Notes under the pieces: generated by a model
Database searches by the model: none
Seen by the model: only the letters and a program-made list of their open reading frames with translations
Told to the model about the DNA's origin: nothing
Shown: one piece after another, positions 8,812 to 18,221 of the stretch
Layout of the letters: each line of letters starts with the position of its first letter
Numbering within the stretch: the stretch's first letter is position 1
Position numbers and translations under genes: made by a program
Source: Sideroxydans sp.
Lineage (GTDB): Bacteria > Pseudomonadota > Gammaproteobacteria > Burkholderiales > Gallionellaceae
Direction of reading: 5' to 3'
Length of the DNA stretch: 64,000 nt
NCBI GenBank assembly: GCA_024636935.1
Contig: JAGXGC010000004.1
Location: 17,287 to 81,286, forward strand

Positions 8812-11800
8812 TCACGCCGCAGACCTTACACGGCGCTCATACTCATCAAGAAAATGCTCCACCTGTGCCAGCGCCTGCTCGAATCTGGGCAACAGCGCTG
8901 CTACCGCTGCACTATTTCCGAGCTTGCCGGCATTCTCTATCTCGGCACACGATTCACCCAGCGCCAGCGCCCCCACCGAGCGCGACGATGATTTGAGTTT
9001 GTGTGCCAACGCCCCGGCAGCCTCCGCCTGACCCGCCGCACAAGCGGCACGCAACTCGACGGCTATTTTTTTTGCACTGAGATGAAAGTCATGCAAGAAG
9101 TCGCGCAGGGTCGCGTCGTCGTCGCCGACTAATTGCTTTAGCACATTCACATCCACCGGCAAGGGGGATGAAGCTTGCAGTCTGTTGTCCATGGGGACAT
9201 CTCCTTCATTCTTATGCGCGCCACGAGGTAGCCACTTCTCCAGCATCGCTTTTAGGTCGACCAGTTGCACCGGCTTGCTCAGGTAATCATCCATGCCGAC
9301 TTCGCGGCAACGCTCGGCTTCTCCGCGCAGGACATTGGCGGTCAGGGCGATGATCGGGATATGCCGCGAGTCCCCCTCTGCGGCACGAATCGTGATGGTC
9401 AGTTCATAGCCGTCCATCTCCGGCATATGCAGGTCGGTGAGCAGTAGGCCGTAATCTCCGCTCCGCCACTGTTCCAGTGCCGCGCGCCCGTCATCGGCAA
9501 CTTCTGCGGCAAACCCGAGCAGCGCGAGCTGGCGCAGAATCACTTTCTGGTTGGTCTCGTTGTCTTCGGCGACCAGAATCAATCGCCCCTGTCGCCGCGC
9601 TTCCTCGCGCGACGGCTGTTTCACGGTCGCGACACTCCTGCCAGAGAAGGGCAGTTCCGCTTCTTCCTGCGCCCTCCCGGCGGCGATGGCCACCGCCTTG
9701 AGCAGAACCCTGCCGGTGAGCACATTACCATCCACCAGTACCAGATTGGCATTCTCCAAACGCGGCTCGCGACGCTGCCCACGCCCGATGACGACGAAGC
9801 GGGTTTCCTGTTCCGGGTGGGCGCGGACTGCGGCGCGCAGGTCATCCAACGGCGGCTCGCCACCTGCGGTATCGATAATCACGATGTATAGACCGGACGG
9901 GAAATCGGTCATCCATTCCTGTGCAGCCGCCAAATCCGCCAACCGTTTGACCACTGCTCCACCATGCACCAGATAGGCGGCGAGATCATCGGCCAGATAC
10001 TCGTGGCCACCCACTACGAGACAGGACAGGCCCTCAACCAGAGAGGATGTTTCGCTGATCCCGGTTTTTTTCGGCGCCAGCGCGAAGGGAAGGCGCACGC
10101 TGAACACCGTCCCCTTGCCCAATTCGCTTTGCACCGTTATCTCGCCGCCCATCAACTCAACCAGGTGGTGGACGATGGACAGCCCGAGCCCGGTGCCGCC
10201 AAAACGCCGGGTGGTGGATATGTCGGCCTGAGTGAAGGGGGTGAAAAGCCCCGACAATGTCTCTTTGTTCATCCCGATGCCGTTGTCGGTCACGCGAAAC
10301 TCCAGTGTTGCCTGTTCCGCTGTGCTCTCGACCAGCAGGGCGCGCACGGACACCCTGCCTGACGGCAGCTTGCCGGAAAACTTGATGGCGTTATTGGTCA
10401 GGTTGATCAGCACCTGGCGCAGGCGCAGCGTATCGCCCAGGACTTTCGCCGGAATTGCCGGATCGACGAATAGCGTGAGCTCTACCCCCTTCTTTTCGGC
10501 CATACTGTCCAGCATGCCACAAACGTTTTCCACCACATCGTCCACCGGCGTGGGCGCATATTCGATCTCCAGCTTGTCGGCTTCGATCTTGGAAAAGTCG
10601 AGAATGTCGTTGATGATGCCCAGCAGGGAATACGCCGATTCGCGGATCAGGTTGACCATTTCCACCTGGTAGCCATGTAGGCTGCTCTGGTGCAGCACGT
10701 CGATCATGCCGATCACGCCGTTCATCGGGGTGCGAATTTCATGGCTCATCGTGGCGAGAAAATCGGACTTGGCGCGGTTGGCGTGCTTGGCCTCAAGCAT
10801 GGCGGTTTCCAGATCGGCGGTGCGCGTTTTTACTTTTTCTTCCAGCTCCTCATTGAGTTTACGCAGCGCCTCCTCGGCCTGCTTAAGCTCGGTGATGTCG
10901 CGGCTTATCCCGAAGATGCCCACAACGGTCTTCTTGTCATCGCCGAACACCGGCCACTTGTTGGTGTTCACCCAGCGCTGCCTGCCCTGCTCGTCATAGT
11001 AGGGGTCAGTCTTGTTCAGCAGAGATTTGCCTTCCTTAAAGACCGGCAATTCTTCTTCGTAGTAAATGCGCGCCGTATCCTTGGGGAAAACCTCCTGGTC
11101 GTGCTTGCCTACCATGTCGCGCCAACTGGCATGGCCGGTGATATTCGCCAGCGTCTGGCTGCAAAAAATAAAACGGCTATTTTTGTCCTTGAAATAAATG
11201 AAATCGGATGTGTTTTCCAGTAAAACAACAAAATTCCGGTTCAATTCGAGAATTTTTTCCTCGGCCTGCTTGCGCCCGGTGATGTCGCGCATGATCCCCA
11301 CGGCATGCCAGCGGCCTTTCTCTTTGAGCGCCGAGATATATATTTCGACGGGGAACTCGCTGCCGTCTTTGCGTATGGCCGTAACTTCCCGTATCTTCCC
11401 GACCAGCGGACCTTCGCCAGTTTTTTGAAAATGGGCAAAGCCGCGCGCGGCATCGGCGTGATCGCGGGGCGGGGCAAGCAACTGGTGCATCTGCCGCCCG
11501 AGCGCCTCCTCCCGGCTGTACTGGAACATCCTTTGCGCTGCAGGGTTCCAGTCGGTAAGCCTGCCATGTTCGTCGATGATGGCAATGGCATCCTGGGCGG
11601 AGGCGTTGATCTGCCGGAAGCGTTCCTCACTCTGTAATTTCTGAAAGACCAGGGAATAGAGCGCAGGAGAAATGATCAGGGTAAGCAGGGTGGCATCAAG
11701 AAAGTTCCAGTAAACATCCGGGATGTTCATGGTGCTGAGAGCATCACCGATTACTACCATGATAAGAAGTTCGGCCACCAGAATGAGTAAGCCCAGGGCG

Positions 11801-11868
11801 ATTGTCAGCCCCAGTGGGGTATTGAACAGCCTCGTCAACTCCAGGTTTTTCATATCGGGTTCATCCAA
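8812..11868 (-). CDS. Hybrid histidine kinase HK1 (2TM-PAS-PAS-HisKA-HATPase-pseudoREC-REC-Hpt)
   Basis: [11 protein letters not shown]-box, N/G boxes, DLHMPEMDG receiver and [13 protein letters not shown] Hpt. The real start may be MKNLE at 11853. Confidence 0.95.
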   Translation of the reverse strand: MDEPDMKNLELTRLFNTPLGLTIALGLLILVAELLIMVVIGDALSTMNIPDVYWNFLDATLLTLIISPALYSLVFQKLQSEERFRQINASAQDAIAIIDEHGRLTDWNPAAQRMFQYSREEALGRQMHQLLAPPRDHADAARGFAHFQKTGEGPLVGKIREVTAIRKDGSEFPVEIYISALKEKGRWHAVGIMRDITGRKQAEEKILELNRNFVVLLENTSDFIYFKDKNSRFIFCSQTLANITGHASWRDMVGKHDQEVFPKDTARIYYEEELPVFKEGKSLLNKTDPYYDEQGRQRWVNTNKWPVFGDDKKTVVGIFGISRDITELKQAEEALRKLNEELEEKVKTRTADLETAMLEAKHANRAKSDFLATMSHEIRTPMNGVIGMIDVLHQSSLHGYQVEMVNLIRESAYSLLGIINDILDFSKIEADKLEIEYAPTPVDDVVENVCGMLDSMAEKKGVELTLFVDPAIPAKVLGDTLRLRQVLINLTNNAIKFSGKLPSGRVSVRALLVESTAEQATLEFRVTDNGIGMNKETLSGLFTPFTQADISTTRRFGGTGLGLSIVHHLVELMGGEITVQSELGKGTVFSVRLPFALAPKKTGISETSSLVEGLSCLVVGGHEYLADDLAAYLVHGGAVVKRLADLAAAQEWMTDFPSGLYIVIIDTAGGEPPLDDLRAAVRAHPEQETRFVVIGRGQRREPRLENANLVLVDGNVLTGRVLLKAVAIAAGRAQEEAELPFSGRSVATVKQPSREEARRQGRLILVAEDNETNQKVILRQLALLGFAAEVADDGRAALEQWRSGDYGLLLTDLHMPEMDGYELTITIRAAEGDSRHIPIIALTANVLRGEAERCREVGMDDYLSKPVQLVDLKAMLEKWLPRGAHKNEGDVPMDNRLQASSPLPVDVNVLKQLVGDDDATLRDFLHDFHLSAKKIAVELRAACAAGQAEAAGALAHKLKSSSRSVGALALGESCAEIENAGKLGNSAAVAALLPRFEQALAQVEHFLDEYERRVRSAA

Positions 11869-14800
11869 TTAATACCCATCGAGAAAATGTTCAACATTCG
11901 TCAGCTCCTGTTCAAACCGGGGCAGCAGCACTGCCAGCGTTCCGTCCTCGCCCGCCTTGCCTGCCTGTTCCATTGCGGCGCACAGCTCGCCCAGCGCCAG
12001 CGCGCCCACCGAGCGGGCCGAGGATTTTAGCTTGTGCGCCGCCGCGCCGACGGTCGCCATATTACCTTGAGCGTAGGCCGCACGCAGTTCCGTTACGATC
12101 TTGTCGGCGCTGCTGTGGAAGTCGTGCAGGAACTCGCGGATGATCGTCTCATCGTCGCCCACCAGTGCCTTGAGTACGTTTACGTCAACCGGGACAGGTG
12201 ACACAACGGGCAGTTGTAGGTCGGGATTTATCCCGACATGCCTGTCCTGAGCCTGTCGAAGCGGTCGGGTTGAAACCCGACCTACGCTTAATGTCGATTC
12301 GCTCGGCATTGGATCGGAAGCAACAACCGGCAACCATTTATCCAGCATCGCTTTTAGGCTGACCAGTTGCACTGGCTTGCTCAGGTAATCATCCATGCCG
12401 ACTTCTCGGCAATGTGCGGCTTCGCCTTTGAGTGCATTGGCGGTGAAGGCGATGATGGGCATACGTGTCTTGCCGGTTTCGGCGGAACGGATGGAGGTGG
12501 TCAGCTCGTAGCCGTCCATCTCCGGCATGTGCAGGTCGGTGATCAGGATGCCGTAATCGCCGCTCTGCCAAAGCGCCAGCGCTTCGCGACCATTACCGGC
12601 GATATCTGCGGTTTGCCCGAGCAGCTTGAGTTGTTGCAGGACGACTTTTTGGTTGATCTCGTTGTCTTCGGCGACCAGGATCAGGCTGCCTTGTCGGCGC
12701 GCTTCTTCGCGGGACAACGGCGCGAGTGTTGCTTTGACATGGTTGGACAGGTCTTTCAGCTCAGGCGGTTTGACCCAGCCGGCAGCAACGGCCACCGCCC
12801 TCAGCAGCGCATTGCGGGTCAATACATTGCCATCCACCAACACCAGATCGGCATCTTCCAAACGCAGTTCCCGTCGCTGCCCGCGCCGGATGACGATGAA
12901 GCGAATTTTATGTTCCGGGTGTGCGCGGGCTGTGGCACGCAGTTCATCCAGCGGCGGGTTGGCGGCTGCGGTGTCAATGAGCACGATGCACAGGCCGGGA
13001 GGATGCTGCAATATCCATTCCTTGATAGTACCCAAGTCTGTCACCCGCTCGACCAGCGCACCCGAATGTTTAAGATAGACGGCAAGATCATCGGCAAGCC
13101 CGTCTGCGCCCACTACCAGGCAGGGCAGGCCGGTGACCTGTTGATTGGGCTGAATTCCTGAGCCTGTCGAAGCGGCCTGAACTGCATTCACTAACAATTT
13201 GAAAGGCAGGTGCACAGTGAATGTCGAGCCTTTGCCCGGTTCGCTCTGCACGGTGATTTCACCGCCCATGATATTTGCCAACTTGCGCGAGATGGCCAGC
13301 CCCAACCCGGAGCCGCCGAAATGCCGGGTGGTGGAAGAGTCCGCTTGGGAAAAAGGTGTGAACAATCGCGCCTGAGTTTCTTCATCCATGCCAATGCCGT
13401 TGTCGGCCACACGAAACTCCAGCATCACCTGCTCCGGCGTGCTTTCAGCCAGCCGCGTACGCACCGATACCTTACCTTGCCCCTGCTGTCCGCCGGAAAA
13501 TTTGATGGCGTTGCTGGTCAGGTTGACCAGTATCTGGCGCAGCCGTCCCGGATCACCCATGACTGTTGCGGGAATGGCCGGGTCGGTGAACAGCAGCAGC
13601 TCCACTCCTTTCTTTTCGGCCATCTGATCCAAGGTTCCACATGCCCCCTCCACCACGTCGGCGACAGACGTGGGTACGCTGTCAATCTGGAGCTTGTCAG
13701 CCTCGATCTTGGAGAAGTCGAGAATGTCGTCAACGATAGCCAGCAAGGCAAACGCCGAGTCGTGGATGATGTTGGACATCTCCATCTGTGCGCCATTCAG
13801 GTCGCTCTGCTGCAATACATCCACCATGCCGATCACGCCGTTCATCGGGGTGCGTATCTCGTGGCTCATGGTGGCAAGGAATTCAGACTTGGCACGGTTG
13901 GCATGCTCTGCTTCGATCCGGGCGCGCTCCAGATCGGCGGTGCGCGCCAGCACTTTGTTTTCCAGCTCTGCGTTGAGATGGCGCAGCGACTCCCCCGTAC
14001 GTTTCTGATCTTCGATCATACTCAACAGCGCATCGGCCATCTGGTTGAGCGCATGGTCGATACGACCAAGATCATCGGTCGCAGAATCGCCGCCCGTCAC
14101 GAGGCGCGTCTTCAGGTCGCCGGCCGCGATGCGCGCGGAGAATTCCACGGTGCGACTGACCGAGCGCGTTATGCCGCGCCACACCGCCCATGAGATCAGC
14201 AGCATGAGCACGATAGCGGCGGCGCTGCCGATGACGAAGGTGATCGTCGCCCGCATCATGGTTTTGTTTATGTGATCGAATTCTTCGTCAGAAACGACCT
14301 TGGCGGCGTGGTGCAGCGTATCCAGCAGCGATTCGATCTCATCGGCGGTGACGGATAACTGCGCCTGGCTGGTGTCGATCTTGTGTTTGACCTCGGCATA
14401 CTCGTCGAACAGCGCGATGTAATCGGTGATCAGTACGGTCATGGCTGCGCGCTGTTTGGCCGATAGTCCCGGCGTCTGGCGCAGATGTTGCCCGAAATCC
14501 TGTTCGACTTGGCGCACTTTCTTGATGTCCTGCGTCTGGTTGCGCAGCAGAAAATCTTTTTCCGCGCGACGCAGGCTAAGCAGGTCTATCATCAGCGGCA
14601 TGGCGGCGGGCGGAATGAGCCGCTCGATGGCGTGGGCGCGCTGGCGAAAACGGCCTTCAAGCCCCGTATCCACGTGACCGAGGCGGCCATACAGCTCAAC
14701 CAGTTCGATAAATATAGCCTCGTGCCGACGGATCTGCCGCCCGATTTCATCTGTGCCCGCCATGGCCTGCCGCTCGTGCTCCATCGTGGGCAGGCGGTGA

Positions 14801-15168
14801 AGTTCAGCTACAAGCGCGATGATGTTGGCAACTTCGTTGCGCACCAGACCGAGGTAGCGCGAGCGCGCCGCCGGGTAACTCAGCTCTTGCCAGGACAGTA
14901 TGAAATCCTTCTCATAACCGCGCGCCTCATCCATGCCCTCATCTATATTCAGGATGGCTGCATCCATTGGTATATGCACGTCCTGAATATTCCGCAGTTG
15001 GGAAGCAAGCTCCGATGAGAGGATATTGGCCATCGCCGCGAGCAGGACAAGAAGCGCGATACCGGTGCCCAGCCCGAGCATGAGCTGGGCGCGCAGCCCC
15101 AGTCGGCGCACCATACCGCGTGGCGACGGTTCAATTCTGGCAGTGGATGGAATCATGGACAAGATCAA
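11869..15168 (-). CDS. Hybrid histidine kinase HK2 (TM-helical periplasmic sensor-TM-HAMP-HisKA-HATPase-pseudoREC-REC-Hpt)
   Basis: Two TM helices, [14 protein letters not shown] sensor motif, [14 protein letters not shown], receiver and Hpt ([13 protein letters not shown]). Confidence 0.95.
12216..12285. repeat. Inverted GTAG-type REP doublet (REPIN-like) with a nested second repeat, inside the HK2 coding sequence
   Basis: GTAG-GTCGGG-atttat-CCCGAC at 12216-12237; its inverted partner GTCGGG-ttgaaa-CCCGAC-CTAC at 12264-12285; spacer cctgtcctgagcctgtcgaagc. Confidence 0.85.
13156..13175. repeat. Second copy of the 20 bp tcctgagcctgtcgaagcgg element within HK2
   Basis: Identical to 12245-12264. 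Confidence 0.8.
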
Positions 15169-18100
15169 TACCCCTCAAGAAAATGTGCAACGCTCGCCAG
15201 CTCCTGTTCGAACTTTGGCAACAGCGCCGCCAGCGCTTTATTATTGCCCGCCTTGCCCGCCTGTTCCATTCCCGCGCACAACTCACCCAGCGCCATCGCC
15301 CCCACCGAGCGCGACGATGATTTGAGCTTGTGCGCCAACGCACCGGCAGTGGCTGCCTGACCCGACGCGCAGGCGGTGCGCAGTTCCGCCGCTATCTTGG
15401 CCGCGCTGAGGCGGAAGTCGTGCAGGAACTCGCGGATCGCTGCCTCGTCATCACCGATCAACGCCTTGAGCACATTCACATCCACAGGCAAGGGGGATGA
15501 AGCTTGCAGTCTGTTAACCATGGGGACATCTCCTTCATTCTCATGCGAGCCACGAGGTAGCCATTTATCCAGCATCGCTTTTAGGCTGACCAGTTGCACC
15601 GGCTTACTCAGGTAATCATCCATGCCGACTTCTCGGCAATGTGCGGCTTCACCTTTGAGTGCATTGGCAGTGAAGGCGATGATGGGAATACGTGTCTTGC
15701 CGGTTTCGGCGGAACGGATGGAGGTGGTCAGCTCGTAGCCGTCCATCTCCGGCATGTGCAGGTCGGTGATCAGGATGCCGTAATCGCCGCTCTGCCACAG
15801 CTCCAGCGCATCGCGACCATTACCGACGATATCTGCGGTTTGCCCGAGCAGCTTGAGTTGTTGCAGGACGACTTTTTGGTTGATCTCGTTGTCTTCGGCG
15901 ACCAGGATCAGGCTGCCTTGTTGGCGCGCTTCTTCGCGGGACAACGGCGTCAATACCGTTTTGACTTCACCAGTTACTGCTTGCCAGTCAGACACCTTAA
16001 CCCTGCCGGAAGCGACCGCCACCGCCTTCAGCAAAACCTTGCGAGAAAGCAAGTTGCCATCTACCAGCACCAGATCATCTTCCTCTACACGCGGCTTGCG
16101 GCGCTGCCCGCGCCGGATGACGACAAAGTGTGTTTGCTGTGCAGGGTGGGCGCGCGCTGCGGCGCGCAGCTGATCCAGCGGCAAGTTGGCGGCGGCGGTG
16201 TCGACCACCACGATGCACATGCCGGGTGGACGCTTGGCTATCCATTCCTTGACTGCCGCTAATTCCGCCTGCCGCTCGACCTTTGCACCCGCATGCACAA
16301 GATAGGCGCCGATATCATCGGCAAGACCCTCGCTACCTCCTGCCACCAGACAGTTCAGTCCGGCAACCAGACTGGGAGTGGCTTCCGGCTGCTCCGGCAC
16401 CCGTTGGAAAGCCAGGCGCACAATGAACACCGAGCCTTTGCCCGGTTCACTCTGTACTGAAATATCGCCGCCCTTGATATTTACCAGCTGCCGCGAGATA
16501 GCCAAGCCCAGTCCGGTACCGCCATAGGTGCGGGTTGTGGATGAGTTGGCCTGGGAAAAGGGCGTGAACAACCGCGCCTGCGTTGCAGCGTCCATACCGA
16601 TGCCGTTATCGGTCACGCGAAACTCCAGCTTCACCTGTTCTGCTGTGCTTTCTGTCGGCAAGGTGCGAACCGACACCTTGCCCTGCCTCGTTTGCCCGCT
16701 GGAAAACTTGACCGCGTTATTGGTCAGGTTGACCAGTATCTGGCGCAAGCGCCCGGGATCGCCCATGACTTGCGCAGGAATGCCGGGGTCAGTGAACAGC
16801 GTCAGCTCCACATCTTTGTGCAAGGCGATGTGGCTCATGGTTTCGCATGCCGACTCCACCACATCGGCAATAGACATGGGCACGCTTTCGATCTGCAGCT
16901 TGCCCGCCTCGATCTTGGAGAAGTCGAGAATGTCGTCGATGATGGACAACAAGGCGAACGCCGAATCGTGGATGATGTTGGCCATCTCCGTCTGCGCACC
17001 ATTCAAACTGCTCTGCTGCAACACATCCACCATGCCGATCACACCGTTCATCGGCGTGCGTATCTCATGGCTCATGGCGGCAAGGAATTCAGACTTGGCG
17101 CGGTTGGCCTTCTCGGCTTTGAGCATGGCCTGCTCCATGGCAAGCGTGATGCGCTTTCGTTCGCGGATGTCGCGCAGAATGCCGGTGAAATAACGCGCCC
17201 CCTGTACAAGATATTCGCTGATAGAGAGCTCCATCGGGATGAGTTCGCCGCTTTTGCTTTTTCCTACGATCTCCCGCCCGATGCCGATGATGCGCGTCTC
17301 ACCGGTACGCATATGGCGATCCAGGTAGCTGTCATGGGCGGAATGGTCGGGTTCTAGCATGAGCATGGAAACGTTTTCCCCGATCACCTCATCGTGGCTA
17401 TAGCCGAGTATCTTCTCCACCGCCGGGTTGGCAGAAAGGATGATGCCTTGGTCGTTTATGGTGATCACGCAATCCATCATGTGATCGACCACAGAGCGGA
17501 TCTCTTCTTCCTTTTTACTTATGTCCAGATTGGTTTGTTCCAGCGCAGCAGTGCGCGACGATACTTTTTGTTCGAGCTCTTCATTGAGCTGGCGCAGCGA
17601 CTCCTCAGCCTGCTTGCGGTCTTCGATCACGCTCAATAATGCGCGCCGCGATTGATTGGCGGCGGCTAGCAGCTCTTGCGCCAATTTTTCAGATGCCAGG
17701 ACTTCCTCGTTGCGAATCTGTTCCGTCAAGTCGGTTGCCACCAGACAGAAAACTGCGGATATCTCATGGATGAACAGATCGTTCACGGACAGCGAAACTG
17801 GGACCCGCGCTCCGTTTCCTGTGACAAGCTCAAGCTGAACGCGGCGCTTCCCGCCTGATCCATTGTCCAGCAACGGTTGAAGGATTTTCCGGCTGTCCGG
17901 TGCAATAAAGGTAGAGAACGTGGCGCCGATCACTTTTTCGAGTGGCGTCTTGAGTATCTCTGCAAAGCTCTGGTTGGCGTACAAAATGACGCCCTCCGCA
18001 GATAGGGTCAGCGCACCTTCGCTCATGTTTTCGATCAGCAACCGGTAAGACTGGTCGGTGCCTTTGAGCGTAAAAATCTGCGCGCCAGCCGCCCCAGTGA

Positions 18101-18221
18101 CGAACAATGCGTCCGACTCACCGCTGAATATCTCGCTCAGGGTCGCTTCGGCTTTTTCAAGCCGGGCGCGCAAATCCCGGTTGTCTGCGAGCAACTTCTC
18201 TGAGGTGGGATAGTTTGGCAT
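15165..18221 (-). CDS. Kai-associated hybrid histidine kinase HK3 (coiled coil-PAS-FixL-like PAS-HisKA-HATPase-pseudoREC-REC-Hpt)
   Basis: N-terminal [21 protein letters not shown] motif, of the type seen in kinases following kaiCB; second PAS is FixL-like ([22 protein letters not shown]); H-box, REC and Hpt present. Confidence 0.94.

Follow-up and report, generated by a model that had tools for sequence, protein, structure and literature searches.

A GTAG-Type Palindromic Repeat Doublet with a Nested Second Repeat as a Predicted In-Frame Part of a Histidine Kinase Linker in Sideroxydans sp.

Introduction

The present work concerns a composite palindromic element in a 64,000-nucleotide stretch of the genome of Sideroxydans sp. 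(Gallionellaceae; assembly GCA_024636935.1, contig JAGXGC010000004.1, positions 17,287 to 81,286 of the forward strand), hereafter the window. The element is situated within the gene of a hybrid sensor histidine kinase, HK2, in the linker between its receiver (REC) and histidine phosphotransfer (Hpt) domains, and consists of two inverted repetitive extragenic palindromes (REPs) enclosing a different repeat. Doublets of inverted REPs (REPINs) are described as forming intergenic populations that are maintained by their REP-associated tyrosine transposases (RAYTs); REPIN–RAYT systems were reportedly described by Bertels and Rainey in 2011 and by Nunvar et al. in 2010, and TnpA-REP by Ton-Hoang et al. 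in 2012. The element of HK2 resembles these systems in having two inverted REPs with a short spacer, and its family co-occurs in congeners with a single-copy, REP-flanked RAYT; however, the copy in HK2 lies in a coding sequence, has no further members of its family in the genome and lacks a RAYT there.

The GTAG and CGTC superfamilies of REPs were defined by Di Nocera, De Gregorio and Rocco (2013; BMC Genomics 14:522, PMC3733652), who found REPs within genes in several species, with more than half of the intragenic inserts being dimers or groups that encode 20–30 amino acids and many of them located in replication and repair genes. It was suggested that these inserts may be neutral because they lie in flexible linkers or loops, and an association with RAYTs in "REPtrons" was also suggested (PMC3733652). 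The HK2 element is similar to them in its GTAG-tagged short hairpin, head-to-head dimeric arrangement, in-frame position and coding length of about 20–30 amino acids. It differs in that the host is a hybrid histidine kinase (the main text of that paper contains no mention of histidine kinases), that the dimer holds a nested second repeat and is the sole family copy in the genome, and that related kinases carry different REP types at the linker site occupied in HK2.

In-frame palindromes in many unrelated genes are also known as Rickettsia palindromic elements (RPEs; Ogata et al. 2000; Claverie & Ogata 2003, via PMC10969869 and PMC3733652). The first reported RPEs were about 150 bp (PMC10969869), and the shorter RPE-4 and RPE-6 belong to the CGTC class (PMC3733652). 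In both cases the palindrome is compatible with how the host protein folds and functions, and in one congener (G008) REPs are found in frame in mutS, recG and rarA; however, RPE hosts are obligate intracellular Alphaproteobacteria and the sequence families are others, whereas the HK2 element is a GTAG-type sequence of 70 nt from a free-living betaproteobacterial lineage, and the likeness is one of behaviour only. The sequence-only reading of the window held that insertion into coding sequences is known mainly for Rickettsia, which is outdated in view of the in-frame GTAG and CGTC REPs of several species (Di Nocera et al. 2013, PMC3733652). Transposable elements of the miniature inverted-repeat type (MITEs), among them intragenic enterobacterial repetitive intergenic consensus (ERIC) sequences, likewise give in-frame fusions (reviewed in PMC10969869). 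The unit nested in the HK2 element matches the ends of a MITE-like repeat of 110–130 nt and occurs in frame in unrelated genes of congeners, but in HK2 it is a 24-nt fragment, approximately one terminal repeat, and it is found repeatedly inside REP doublets at varied positions.

Thus, in its anatomy the HK2 element is both a GTAG REP dimer and an intragenic REP, whereas the copy number and the cognate RAYT of a REPIN are lacking in its own genome. It is very probable that a GTAG-superfamily REP doublet and a nested unit with MITE-like ends were inserted at a GTAC site, were tolerated as linker sequence and now represent an orphan. In-frame insertion of REPs is already known; the repeated occupation of one kinase-linker site by different palindromes goes beyond it. 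In the papers searched, no reports were found of many repeat families concentrated in two linkers of one kinase family, of shared GTAC junctions or insert modules in multiples of three, or of a 24-nt unit nested in REP doublets.

Structure and Predicted Translation of the Element

Inspection of the sequence confirmed the earlier description of an inverted pair of GTAG-GTCGGG-N6-CCCGAC hairpins enclosing a different repeat: the element is a 70-nt structure with a nested 24-nt unit (Table 1), and this inner unit was found to be multicopy in congeners. Each hairpin is 22 nt long and has a perfect 6-bp stem and a 6-nt loop (7–8 pairs in the fold), as is characteristic of short G+C-rich REP stem-loops with stems of about 6–9 bp, and the terminal GTAG and its complement CTAC both lie outside the GTCGGG/CCCGAC stems, as in the GTAG superfamily. 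The 26-nt spacer and the start-to-start distance of 48 nt between the inverted hairpins correspond to REPIN geometry. With no more than two mismatches allowed, the hairpin pattern gave three matches in the window, all of them inside the element (0.03 expected from shuffled sequences), and RNA of the coding strand folded into both hairpins (z = −2.9 relative to shuffles). The 70 nt correspond to codons V962–L984 of HK2 plus the first base of Q985, in frame on the minus strand; judging from the ORF and its predicted translation, the element is read in frame, in agreement with the earlier proposal, and accounts for a 22-residue linker insert.

The HK2 protein (1099 aa) comprises a weakly supported HAMP region, HisKA, HATPase_c, a receiver-like region, Response_reg (residues 830–942) and Hpt (residues 1012–1093). 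Alignments showed conservation of SHEIRTP in the H-box, of HKLKSS in Hpt and of the REC motif. The frame is open over 1099 codons, Hpt is intact downstream of the element and homologs without the insert exist, as in other intragenic REPs. In the AlphaFold2 model (alignment of 52 sequences, overall mean predicted local distance difference test score (pLDDT) of 68.7), residues 949–989 had no secondary structure and a pLDDT of 28–34, and they were followed by a four-helix Hpt domain with a pLDDT of 83–96; the stretch encoded by the element is thus predicted to be disordered.

An Rfam scan of the element returned nothing relevant, a promoter scan revealed no promoter-like site in the scanned region, and a terminator scan gave no match at the element, the sole terminator-like match in the scanned region being far away. 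A regulatory or riboswitch-like RNA was set aside as a candidate: the element occurs as DNA on both strands and at intergenic sites of congeners, adjoins a RAYT there, and decays in the other linker of HK2.

Empty and Occupied States of the Linker Site

A comparison of linkers among homologous kinases revealed an empty site. In the kinase P0062 from a metagenome-assembled genome (MAG; locus L085), the linker reads …GCC GAA ACC ACA TCA AAC GTA CAA CTG CCC ATA…, and in HK2 it reads …AGC GAA TCG ACA TTA AGC GTA [66 nt] CAA CTG CCC GTT…, with a net gain of 66 nt (22 codons) at GTA/CAA. Since T and A are repeated at the two junctions, the boundaries of the insertion can be placed only to within 1–3 nt. 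The insert lies within GTAC: the target GTA and the G of the element form the left GTAG, and the CTA of the element and the C of the target form the right CTAC. Of the 66 nt, 42 (14 codons) form the core of the doublet and 24 (8 codons) the nested unit, and the reading frame and the Hpt domain were therefore preserved; the surviving modules are thus each a multiple of three. In another kinase, P0088, a different REP doublet, GTAGGGCGGGCTCTGCCCGCC-GATGAAAAACCAT-GTCGGGCAGAGCCCGACCTAC, lies in the REC-Hpt linker between junctions matching those of HK2 (…GGC GTA / CAA CTG CCG GTT GCG…). Consequently, the GTAC site …GTA/CAA CTG CC… was found in three states, namely, empty (P0062), occupied by a GTCGGG-type doublet with the unit (HK2), and occupied by a different doublet (P0088).

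Orthologs of the HK2 sensor were searched for in 68 congeneric species genomes and none were found, and the orthologs P0005, P0006 and P0007 were drawn from metagenome proteins. Orthologs with and without an insert were compared, as proposed in the sequence-only reading. P0005 (82% identical overall) carries a GGCGGG-type doublet in the REC-Hpt linker and P0006 (75%) the left half of such a doublet, in both cases with a left flank alignable with that of HK2; no REP was present in the linker of P0007 (69%). A single ancestral insertion for the REPs of P0005 and P0006 was considered and dropped: stems, loops and spacer lengths differ, and P0088 uses the junctions with another type. The different REP types at HK2-like junctions may have been inserted independently at a hot spot, or they may reflect turnover of a site that was already occupied.

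It should be noted that P0006 ends 14 codons past the first hairpin of the REC-Hpt linker, without Hpt (L037:6857-6919), and that its kinase gene is closely preceded, on the upstream side, by a separate Hpt ORF of 110 residues (L037:3660-3992). The truncation and the separate ORF may reflect a rearrangement at the palindrome.

Table 1. Coordinates of the HK2 gene, the composite element and related features in the window.
Feature	Coordinates	Strand	Basis and remarks
HK2, intact hybrid sensor histidine kinase (sensor/HAMP, HisKA, HATPase_c, receiver-like, REC, Hpt)	11869..15168	-	ORF, domains
Composite palindromic element: REP doublet (REPIN-type) with nested 24-nt unit	12216..12285	-	predicted V962-L984 of HK2
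REP hairpin GTAG-GTCGGG-ATTTAT-CCCGAC	12216..12237	.	plus strand GTAGGTCGGG-ATTTAT-CCCGAC; 3' hairpin of the coding strand, read VGINPDL
GTAG of the left end	12216-12219		
AT between the first hairpin and the unit	12238-12239		plus-strand order
Nested 24-nt (8-codon) unit	12240..12263	.	plus strand GCCTGTCCTGAGCCTGTCGAAGCG; coding strand CGCTTCGACAGGCTCAGGACAGGC, read (R)PLRQAQDR
REP hairpin GTCGGG-TTGAAA-CCCGAC-CTAC	12264..12285	.	plus strand GTCGGG-TTGAAA-CCCGACCTAC; 5' hairpin of the coding strand, GTAGGTCGGGTTTCAACCCGAC, read VGRVSTR
CTAC of the right end	12282-12285		complement of GTAG
Net 66-nt insertion relative to the empty site	12217..12282	-	comparison with P0062
REC segment (approximately aa 815-946), 93-100% DNA-identical to HK3	12331..12726	-	sliding-window identity
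HATPase-to-receiver linker of HK2, decayed and partly deleted REP doublet	13138..13191	-	alignment with P0059
Second copy of 20-mer CCGCTTCGACAGGCTCAGGA	13156-13175		HK2
Second copy of unit core TTCGACAGGCTCAGG	13157-13171		HATPase-to-receiver linker of HK2
HK1, paralog	8812..11868		
HK1 REC-Hpt linker	9160-9225		
HK3, paralog	15165..18221		
HK3 REC-Hpt linker	15489-15554		

Repeat-Derived Linkers in the Kinase Family

The distribution of such inserts was analyzed in the 120 best homologs of the C-terminal module of HK2 from a large protein collection (119 non-duplicate); the linkers were cut at conserved anchors and scored for peptide motifs matching translated repeats. Repeat-derived sequences were found in linker 1 (HATPase-receiver) in 26 of the 119 proteins (22%) and in linker 2 (REC-Hpt) in 61 (51%), the motif density being 0.7–7.7 per 1000 residues in linkers versus 0–0.036 elsewhere. 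The motifs represented at least eight families, namely, VGRxSTR…VGLKPDLQ (the REP family of the HK2 element), VGRALPADEKxCRAEPDLQ, VGRVSPSGVTRH…ANPTY, GVLPYAPT…VGAYGNTP, RSPHDNAGNxPGFHPGY, SLPPxRGKARMGV…TPSLTLP, IVGASPARE… and the MITE-like unit motifs LRQAQ, STGSG and EPVEA. Basal linkers were short, for example KLLPEQPDANEPPSLVA; the median length of linker 1 was 17 aa, and linker 2 ranged from 7 to 253 aa. It appears somewhat more probable than the contrary that both inter-domain linkers of this large family of hybrid kinases of Gallionellaceae and their relatives serve as landing pads for many palindromic repeats.

The paralogs HK1 and HK3 have a 22-residue REC-Hpt linker, RG[AS]H[KE]NEGDVPMxNRLQASS. 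This linker resembles the peptide RSPHDNAGNxPGFHPGY, recurrent in at least ten members of the kinase family, with about 6 of 11 residues identical between RG[AS]H[KE]NEGDVPMxNRLQ and that peptide, a weak likeness at the protein level. Thus, the HK1/HK3 linker is shorter than that of HK2, as the sequence-only reading had it, and, rather than being unrelated, may stem from another palindromic repeat that has decayed.

The REP Family and Its Transposase in Congeners

In a first search, the pattern GTAGGTCGGG-N6-CCCGAC was found in 16–31 copies in 5 of 24 congeners, which probably belong to Gallionella, judging from the names of homologous proteins. The looser pattern GTRGGKCGGG-N4-7-CCCGMC gave 29–167 copies in 12 of 68 congeners, with 0–2 matches for the reversed control pattern. 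Copies in congeners were often doublets with a start-to-start distance of 47–48 nt, as in the HK2 element (genomes G016 and G008), usually with a T-rich run before them and A after them, and their spacers were variable. The two hairpins of HK2 are both represented there: 22-mers identical to the one at 12216..12237 were intergenic in G016, G020 and G052, and the other is the most frequent variant of the family.

Genome G008 encodes a 169-aa RAYT (140.7 bits on NCBIfam NF047646, cut-off 80) with tandem arrays of GTGGGTCGGGTTTCAACCCGAC and GTGGGTCGGACTTCAGTCCGAC doublets, with a period of 87–88 nt, on both sides; this RAYT and its flanking arrays are a canonical REPtron. Proteins at least 65% identical to it were encoded in six genomes, all with at least 30 hairpins, and in none of the genomes with fewer than 29 hairpins (56 congeners and the window's own). 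A second RAYT-like gene was present in G016 (L044, G016:C116:6500-8723), flanked by a different REP family, GTAGGTTGGGTTGAATGCAATGAAGCCCAAC; therefore, several REP–RAYT pairs exist among the congeners.

The family also enters genes in congeners. Of 17 sampled REP clusters in G008, 7 were in frame in genes, the hosts being MgsA/RarA, MutS, a FolC-like ligase, a FadB-like enzyme, RecG, phosphomannomutase and an M20 peptidase (L088-L096); none of the 4 clusters sampled in G016 was in frame in a gene. In G011 (L003), REPs were found twice in frame in a GT4 glycosyltransferase, where the sole match of that genome to the REP pattern is located.

Orphan Status of the Element in Its Own Genome

The assembly containing the window (2.7 Mb, 36 contigs, 95% complete) presented a different picture. 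No further copies of the hairpins within four mismatches and no other GTAG-hairpin family were detected in this genome, although many copies are usual for GTAG REPs. The earlier statement that the 64-kb window has no RAYT gene was confirmed, and it extends to the whole assembly, in which no homolog of the G008 RAYT was detected at E ≤ 1e-5, although a cognate RAYT is a feature of REPINs. The sole Y1_Tnp protein of this genome (243 aa, on a contig other than that of the window, C7:64646-65377, L051:1646-2377) scored 63.6 bits on NF047646 (cut-off 80), and inverted repeats of 24 nt (L051 1624-1647 and 2424-2447), not REPs, lie on either side of its gene; therefore, it belongs to the transposases with terminal inverted repeats and not to a REPtron. 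The commonest repeat of this genome, CGTCATTCCGGCGCAGGCCGGAATCCAG and its relatives, with 14-mers occurring 19–37 times on many contigs, is unrelated to GTAG REPs.

Copies of both repeat families are confined to HK2 in this genome. Since there is neither a cognate RAYT nor another copy of either repeat, the element is now an immobile orphan. The genome-wide copy count suggested in the sequence-only reading thus gave the motifs only in the HK2 gene of their own genome and in many copies in congeners; occurrence in a single gene does not refute a repeat origin, because both families are multicopy in congeners and the REP family co-occurs with a RAYT there.

The Nested Unit and the Second Linker of HK2

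The 20-mer CCGCTTCGACAGGCTCAGGA (coding strand) was present in two copies in the genome, both in HK2: one inside the doublet and the other, with the unit core TTCGACAGGCTCAGG, in the HATPase-to-receiver linker. Sequences within three mismatches of it were found in 62 of 69 genomes of the genus, with 34–47 copies in G012, G006, G013, G078 and G043. The full elements of the congeners are 110–130 nt long, have the inverted ends CCGTTCG(C/T)CCTGAGCCTGTCGAAGG … CCTTCGACAGGCTCAGGACGAACGG and occur in tens of copies; owing to these inverted ends they were regarded as MITE-like. The 24-nt nested unit of HK2 has 18 nt in common with one of the ends. The notion of the inner sequence as a plain variable spacer (the spacers of G016 and G008 are unrelated) was rejected, since it is a separate multicopy family in congeners.

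Pairs of unfilled and filled doublets indicate that the unit is an insertion in its own right. In linker 1 of the upstream kinase of locus L036, GTAGGTCGGGTTTTAACCCGAC-AT-GTCGGGATAAATTCCGACCTAC is the HK2 doublet without the unit; similarly, linker 1 of P0088 is GTAGGTCGGGTTTCAACCCGAC-ATGATGATGGT-GTCGGGTTAAAACCCGACCTAC, and that of P0122 is the same with 24 nt added after CCCGAC. In linker 1 of P0059 the unit lies elsewhere, within the loop of the first hairpin. Outside the kinases, the unit was observed in frame in a gene of the Hsp70 family (HscA-like), with four tandem copies in G006 (L074, G006:C41:94087-94178) and one copy in G046, as well as in a radical SAM gene (PVLSLSKG) and an adhesin-like gene (STGSGQG) of congeners (L080-L082 among the loci).

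The linker 1 sequence of HK2, …GTT CAG GCC GCT TCG ACA GGC TCA GGA ATT CAG CCC AAT CAA CAG GTC ACC…, has an intact counterpart in P0059, GTAGGTCGGG[CCGCTTCGACAGGCTCAGGACAGG]ATTCAGCCCGAC AT GTCGGGATTAATCCCGACCTAC. Measured against P0059, 4 nt are deleted from the HK2 copy, its second hairpin is gone and its arms carry substitutions, CAGCCCAATCAACAG being the remnant of the 3' REP arm; the unit is read there in another frame, as AASTGSGI. Intermediate states were found in linker 1 of P0006 (a single collapsed hairpin, VGRDEPDLQ) and of P0005 (GTA…CAA CCC AAT ATA CAG alone). Judging from these alignments, HK2 combines a pristine composite in its REC-Hpt linker with an old and decaying one in linker 1.

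Recombination among Paralogous Kinases

Comparison of HK2 with HK3 revealed that the near-identity of the REC segment (Table 1) contrasts with 70–93% identity upstream and 43–88% in the linker and Hpt, the identity dropping directly after KWLP. This segment looks like a gene-conversion tract with its 3' end at the REP-bearing linker. At L036, two adjacent kinase genes have a nearly identical linker 2 doublet with its flanks. Taken together, the HK2/HK3 tract and the L036 gene pair indicate that kinase modules are exchanged between paralogs. Such exchange is a plausible route for the spread of inserts without a transposase, as well as for the arrival of the orphan copy in its own genome.

Discussion

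According to the interpretation considered very probable above, a REPIN-type doublet would have entered the DNA of the REC-Hpt linker at a GTAC site (GTA/CAA), and a 24-nt unit from the end of a MITE-like repeat would subsequently have nested between its hairpins. Exactly 66 nt would thereby have been gained, with the frame and the downstream Hpt kept, and the insert would be translated as a disordered linker extension of 22 residues, tolerated because the linker need only tether Hpt to REC. The insertion would most likely have occurred in a lineage possessing the cognate RAYT, which is a single-strand HUH/Y1 transposase still encoded by several congeners, and the element would then have reached, or stayed in, its own genome as kinase DNA through vertical descent and recombination between paralogous modules. 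We infer the RAYT-mediated insertion, the order of doublet and unit, the route into the genome and the selective neutrality.

Several observations weigh against this interpretation. The empty-site reference, P0062, is a paralogous member of the family from another genome and not a strict ortholog. No transposition event was observed, and the role of the RAYT is deduced from co-occurrence in other genomes, while in the REP-rich genomes G057, G016 (nearly complete) and G020 (80% complete) no close RAYT was detected. The frequencies of repeat-derived linkers rest on motifs (regular expressions) picked after inspection of the linkers, and the palindrome was checked at the DNA level for three of the eight motif families. 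The hairpins are perfect despite the absence of a RAYT and of decayed relics elsewhere in the genome, which is awkward to reconcile with long residence; arrival by recombination was proposed for this reason, and no donor was identified. In addition, the unit is identical at 20 of 20 positions between the two linkers of HK2, 911 nt apart, despite the diverged arms, and this is not explained by simple neutral decay.

The alternative that survives best, although it is unlikely, is that the doublet was not transposed into HK2 and that ectopic recombination or gene conversion between paralogous kinase modules copied it there from the linker of another kinase. This is a variant of the interpretation above with a different last step, in which a RAYT inserted the doublet a single time, in the distant past and at another place. 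The element's closest relatives do lie in kinase linkers of other genomes and not in intergenic DNA: linker 1 of P0122 matches the left hairpin and nested unit with two mismatches, and both hairpins are found in linker 1 of the L036 upstream kinase. Paralogs demonstrably recombine (the HK2/HK3 tract and the adjacent genes of L036), and orphan status is in line with copying as well. However, the junctions with the empty site are clean, the gain is exactly 66 nt and no flank of linker 1 was carried along; moreover, P0088 has a different REP type at the same junctions, which looks site-specific rather than like homologous exchange.

True exaptation, in which the REP peptide or the mRNA or DNA hairpins would be under selection, is considered improbable. 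Candidate roles would be the setting of the REC-Hpt distance in the phosphorelay, ribosome pausing between domains, or a recombination site for module swaps. The persistence of perfect hairpins in a genome without a RAYT, the presence of such elements in more than half of the REC-Hpt linkers of the family and the termination of the tract shared with HK3 exactly at the REP linker are consistent with such roles. On the other hand, repeat-free linkers are common and short (see the survey above), the inserts derive from at least eight unrelated repeat families with unrelated peptides, older copies are decaying and partly deleted, and the region is predicted to be disordered; a conversion tract that stops at heterology is expected without any special function. 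Given the predicted disorder and the decay of older copies, a tolerated, near-neutral insertion fits better than a selected function. The sequence-only reading had proposed that a selfish palindrome was exapted as protein linker sequence: that a selfish palindrome became linker sequence holds, whereas exaptation beyond a tolerated linker is not supported.

An artefact of misassembly in a metagenome-derived contig, or decay of HK2 as a pseudogene, is highly improbable, for although the assembly of 36 contigs is probably a MAG or a draft, the element lies midway in a 252-kb contig, both flanks align codon by codon with homologous kinases, the frame, catalytic motifs and Hpt are intact, and similar in-frame elements occur in independent NCBI, JGI and ENA assemblies.

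The HK2 element provides a codon-level case of a selfish palindrome becoming protein sequence, with an exact empty/filled pair, a two-module insert and a tolerant domain architecture. Since orphan copies can survive inside genes, the number of copies in one genome says little about whether a sequence is of REP origin. We know of no direct observation of REPIN mobility; if RAYTs insert or exchange doublets at GTAC-like sites, the filled and empty pairs would constitute a target-site model for it, and the filled and empty linkers are natural material for studying target choice of REPINs and their transposases. The data suggest that mobile palindromes can supply much of the diversity in linker length and sequence of bacterial multidomain signalling proteins.

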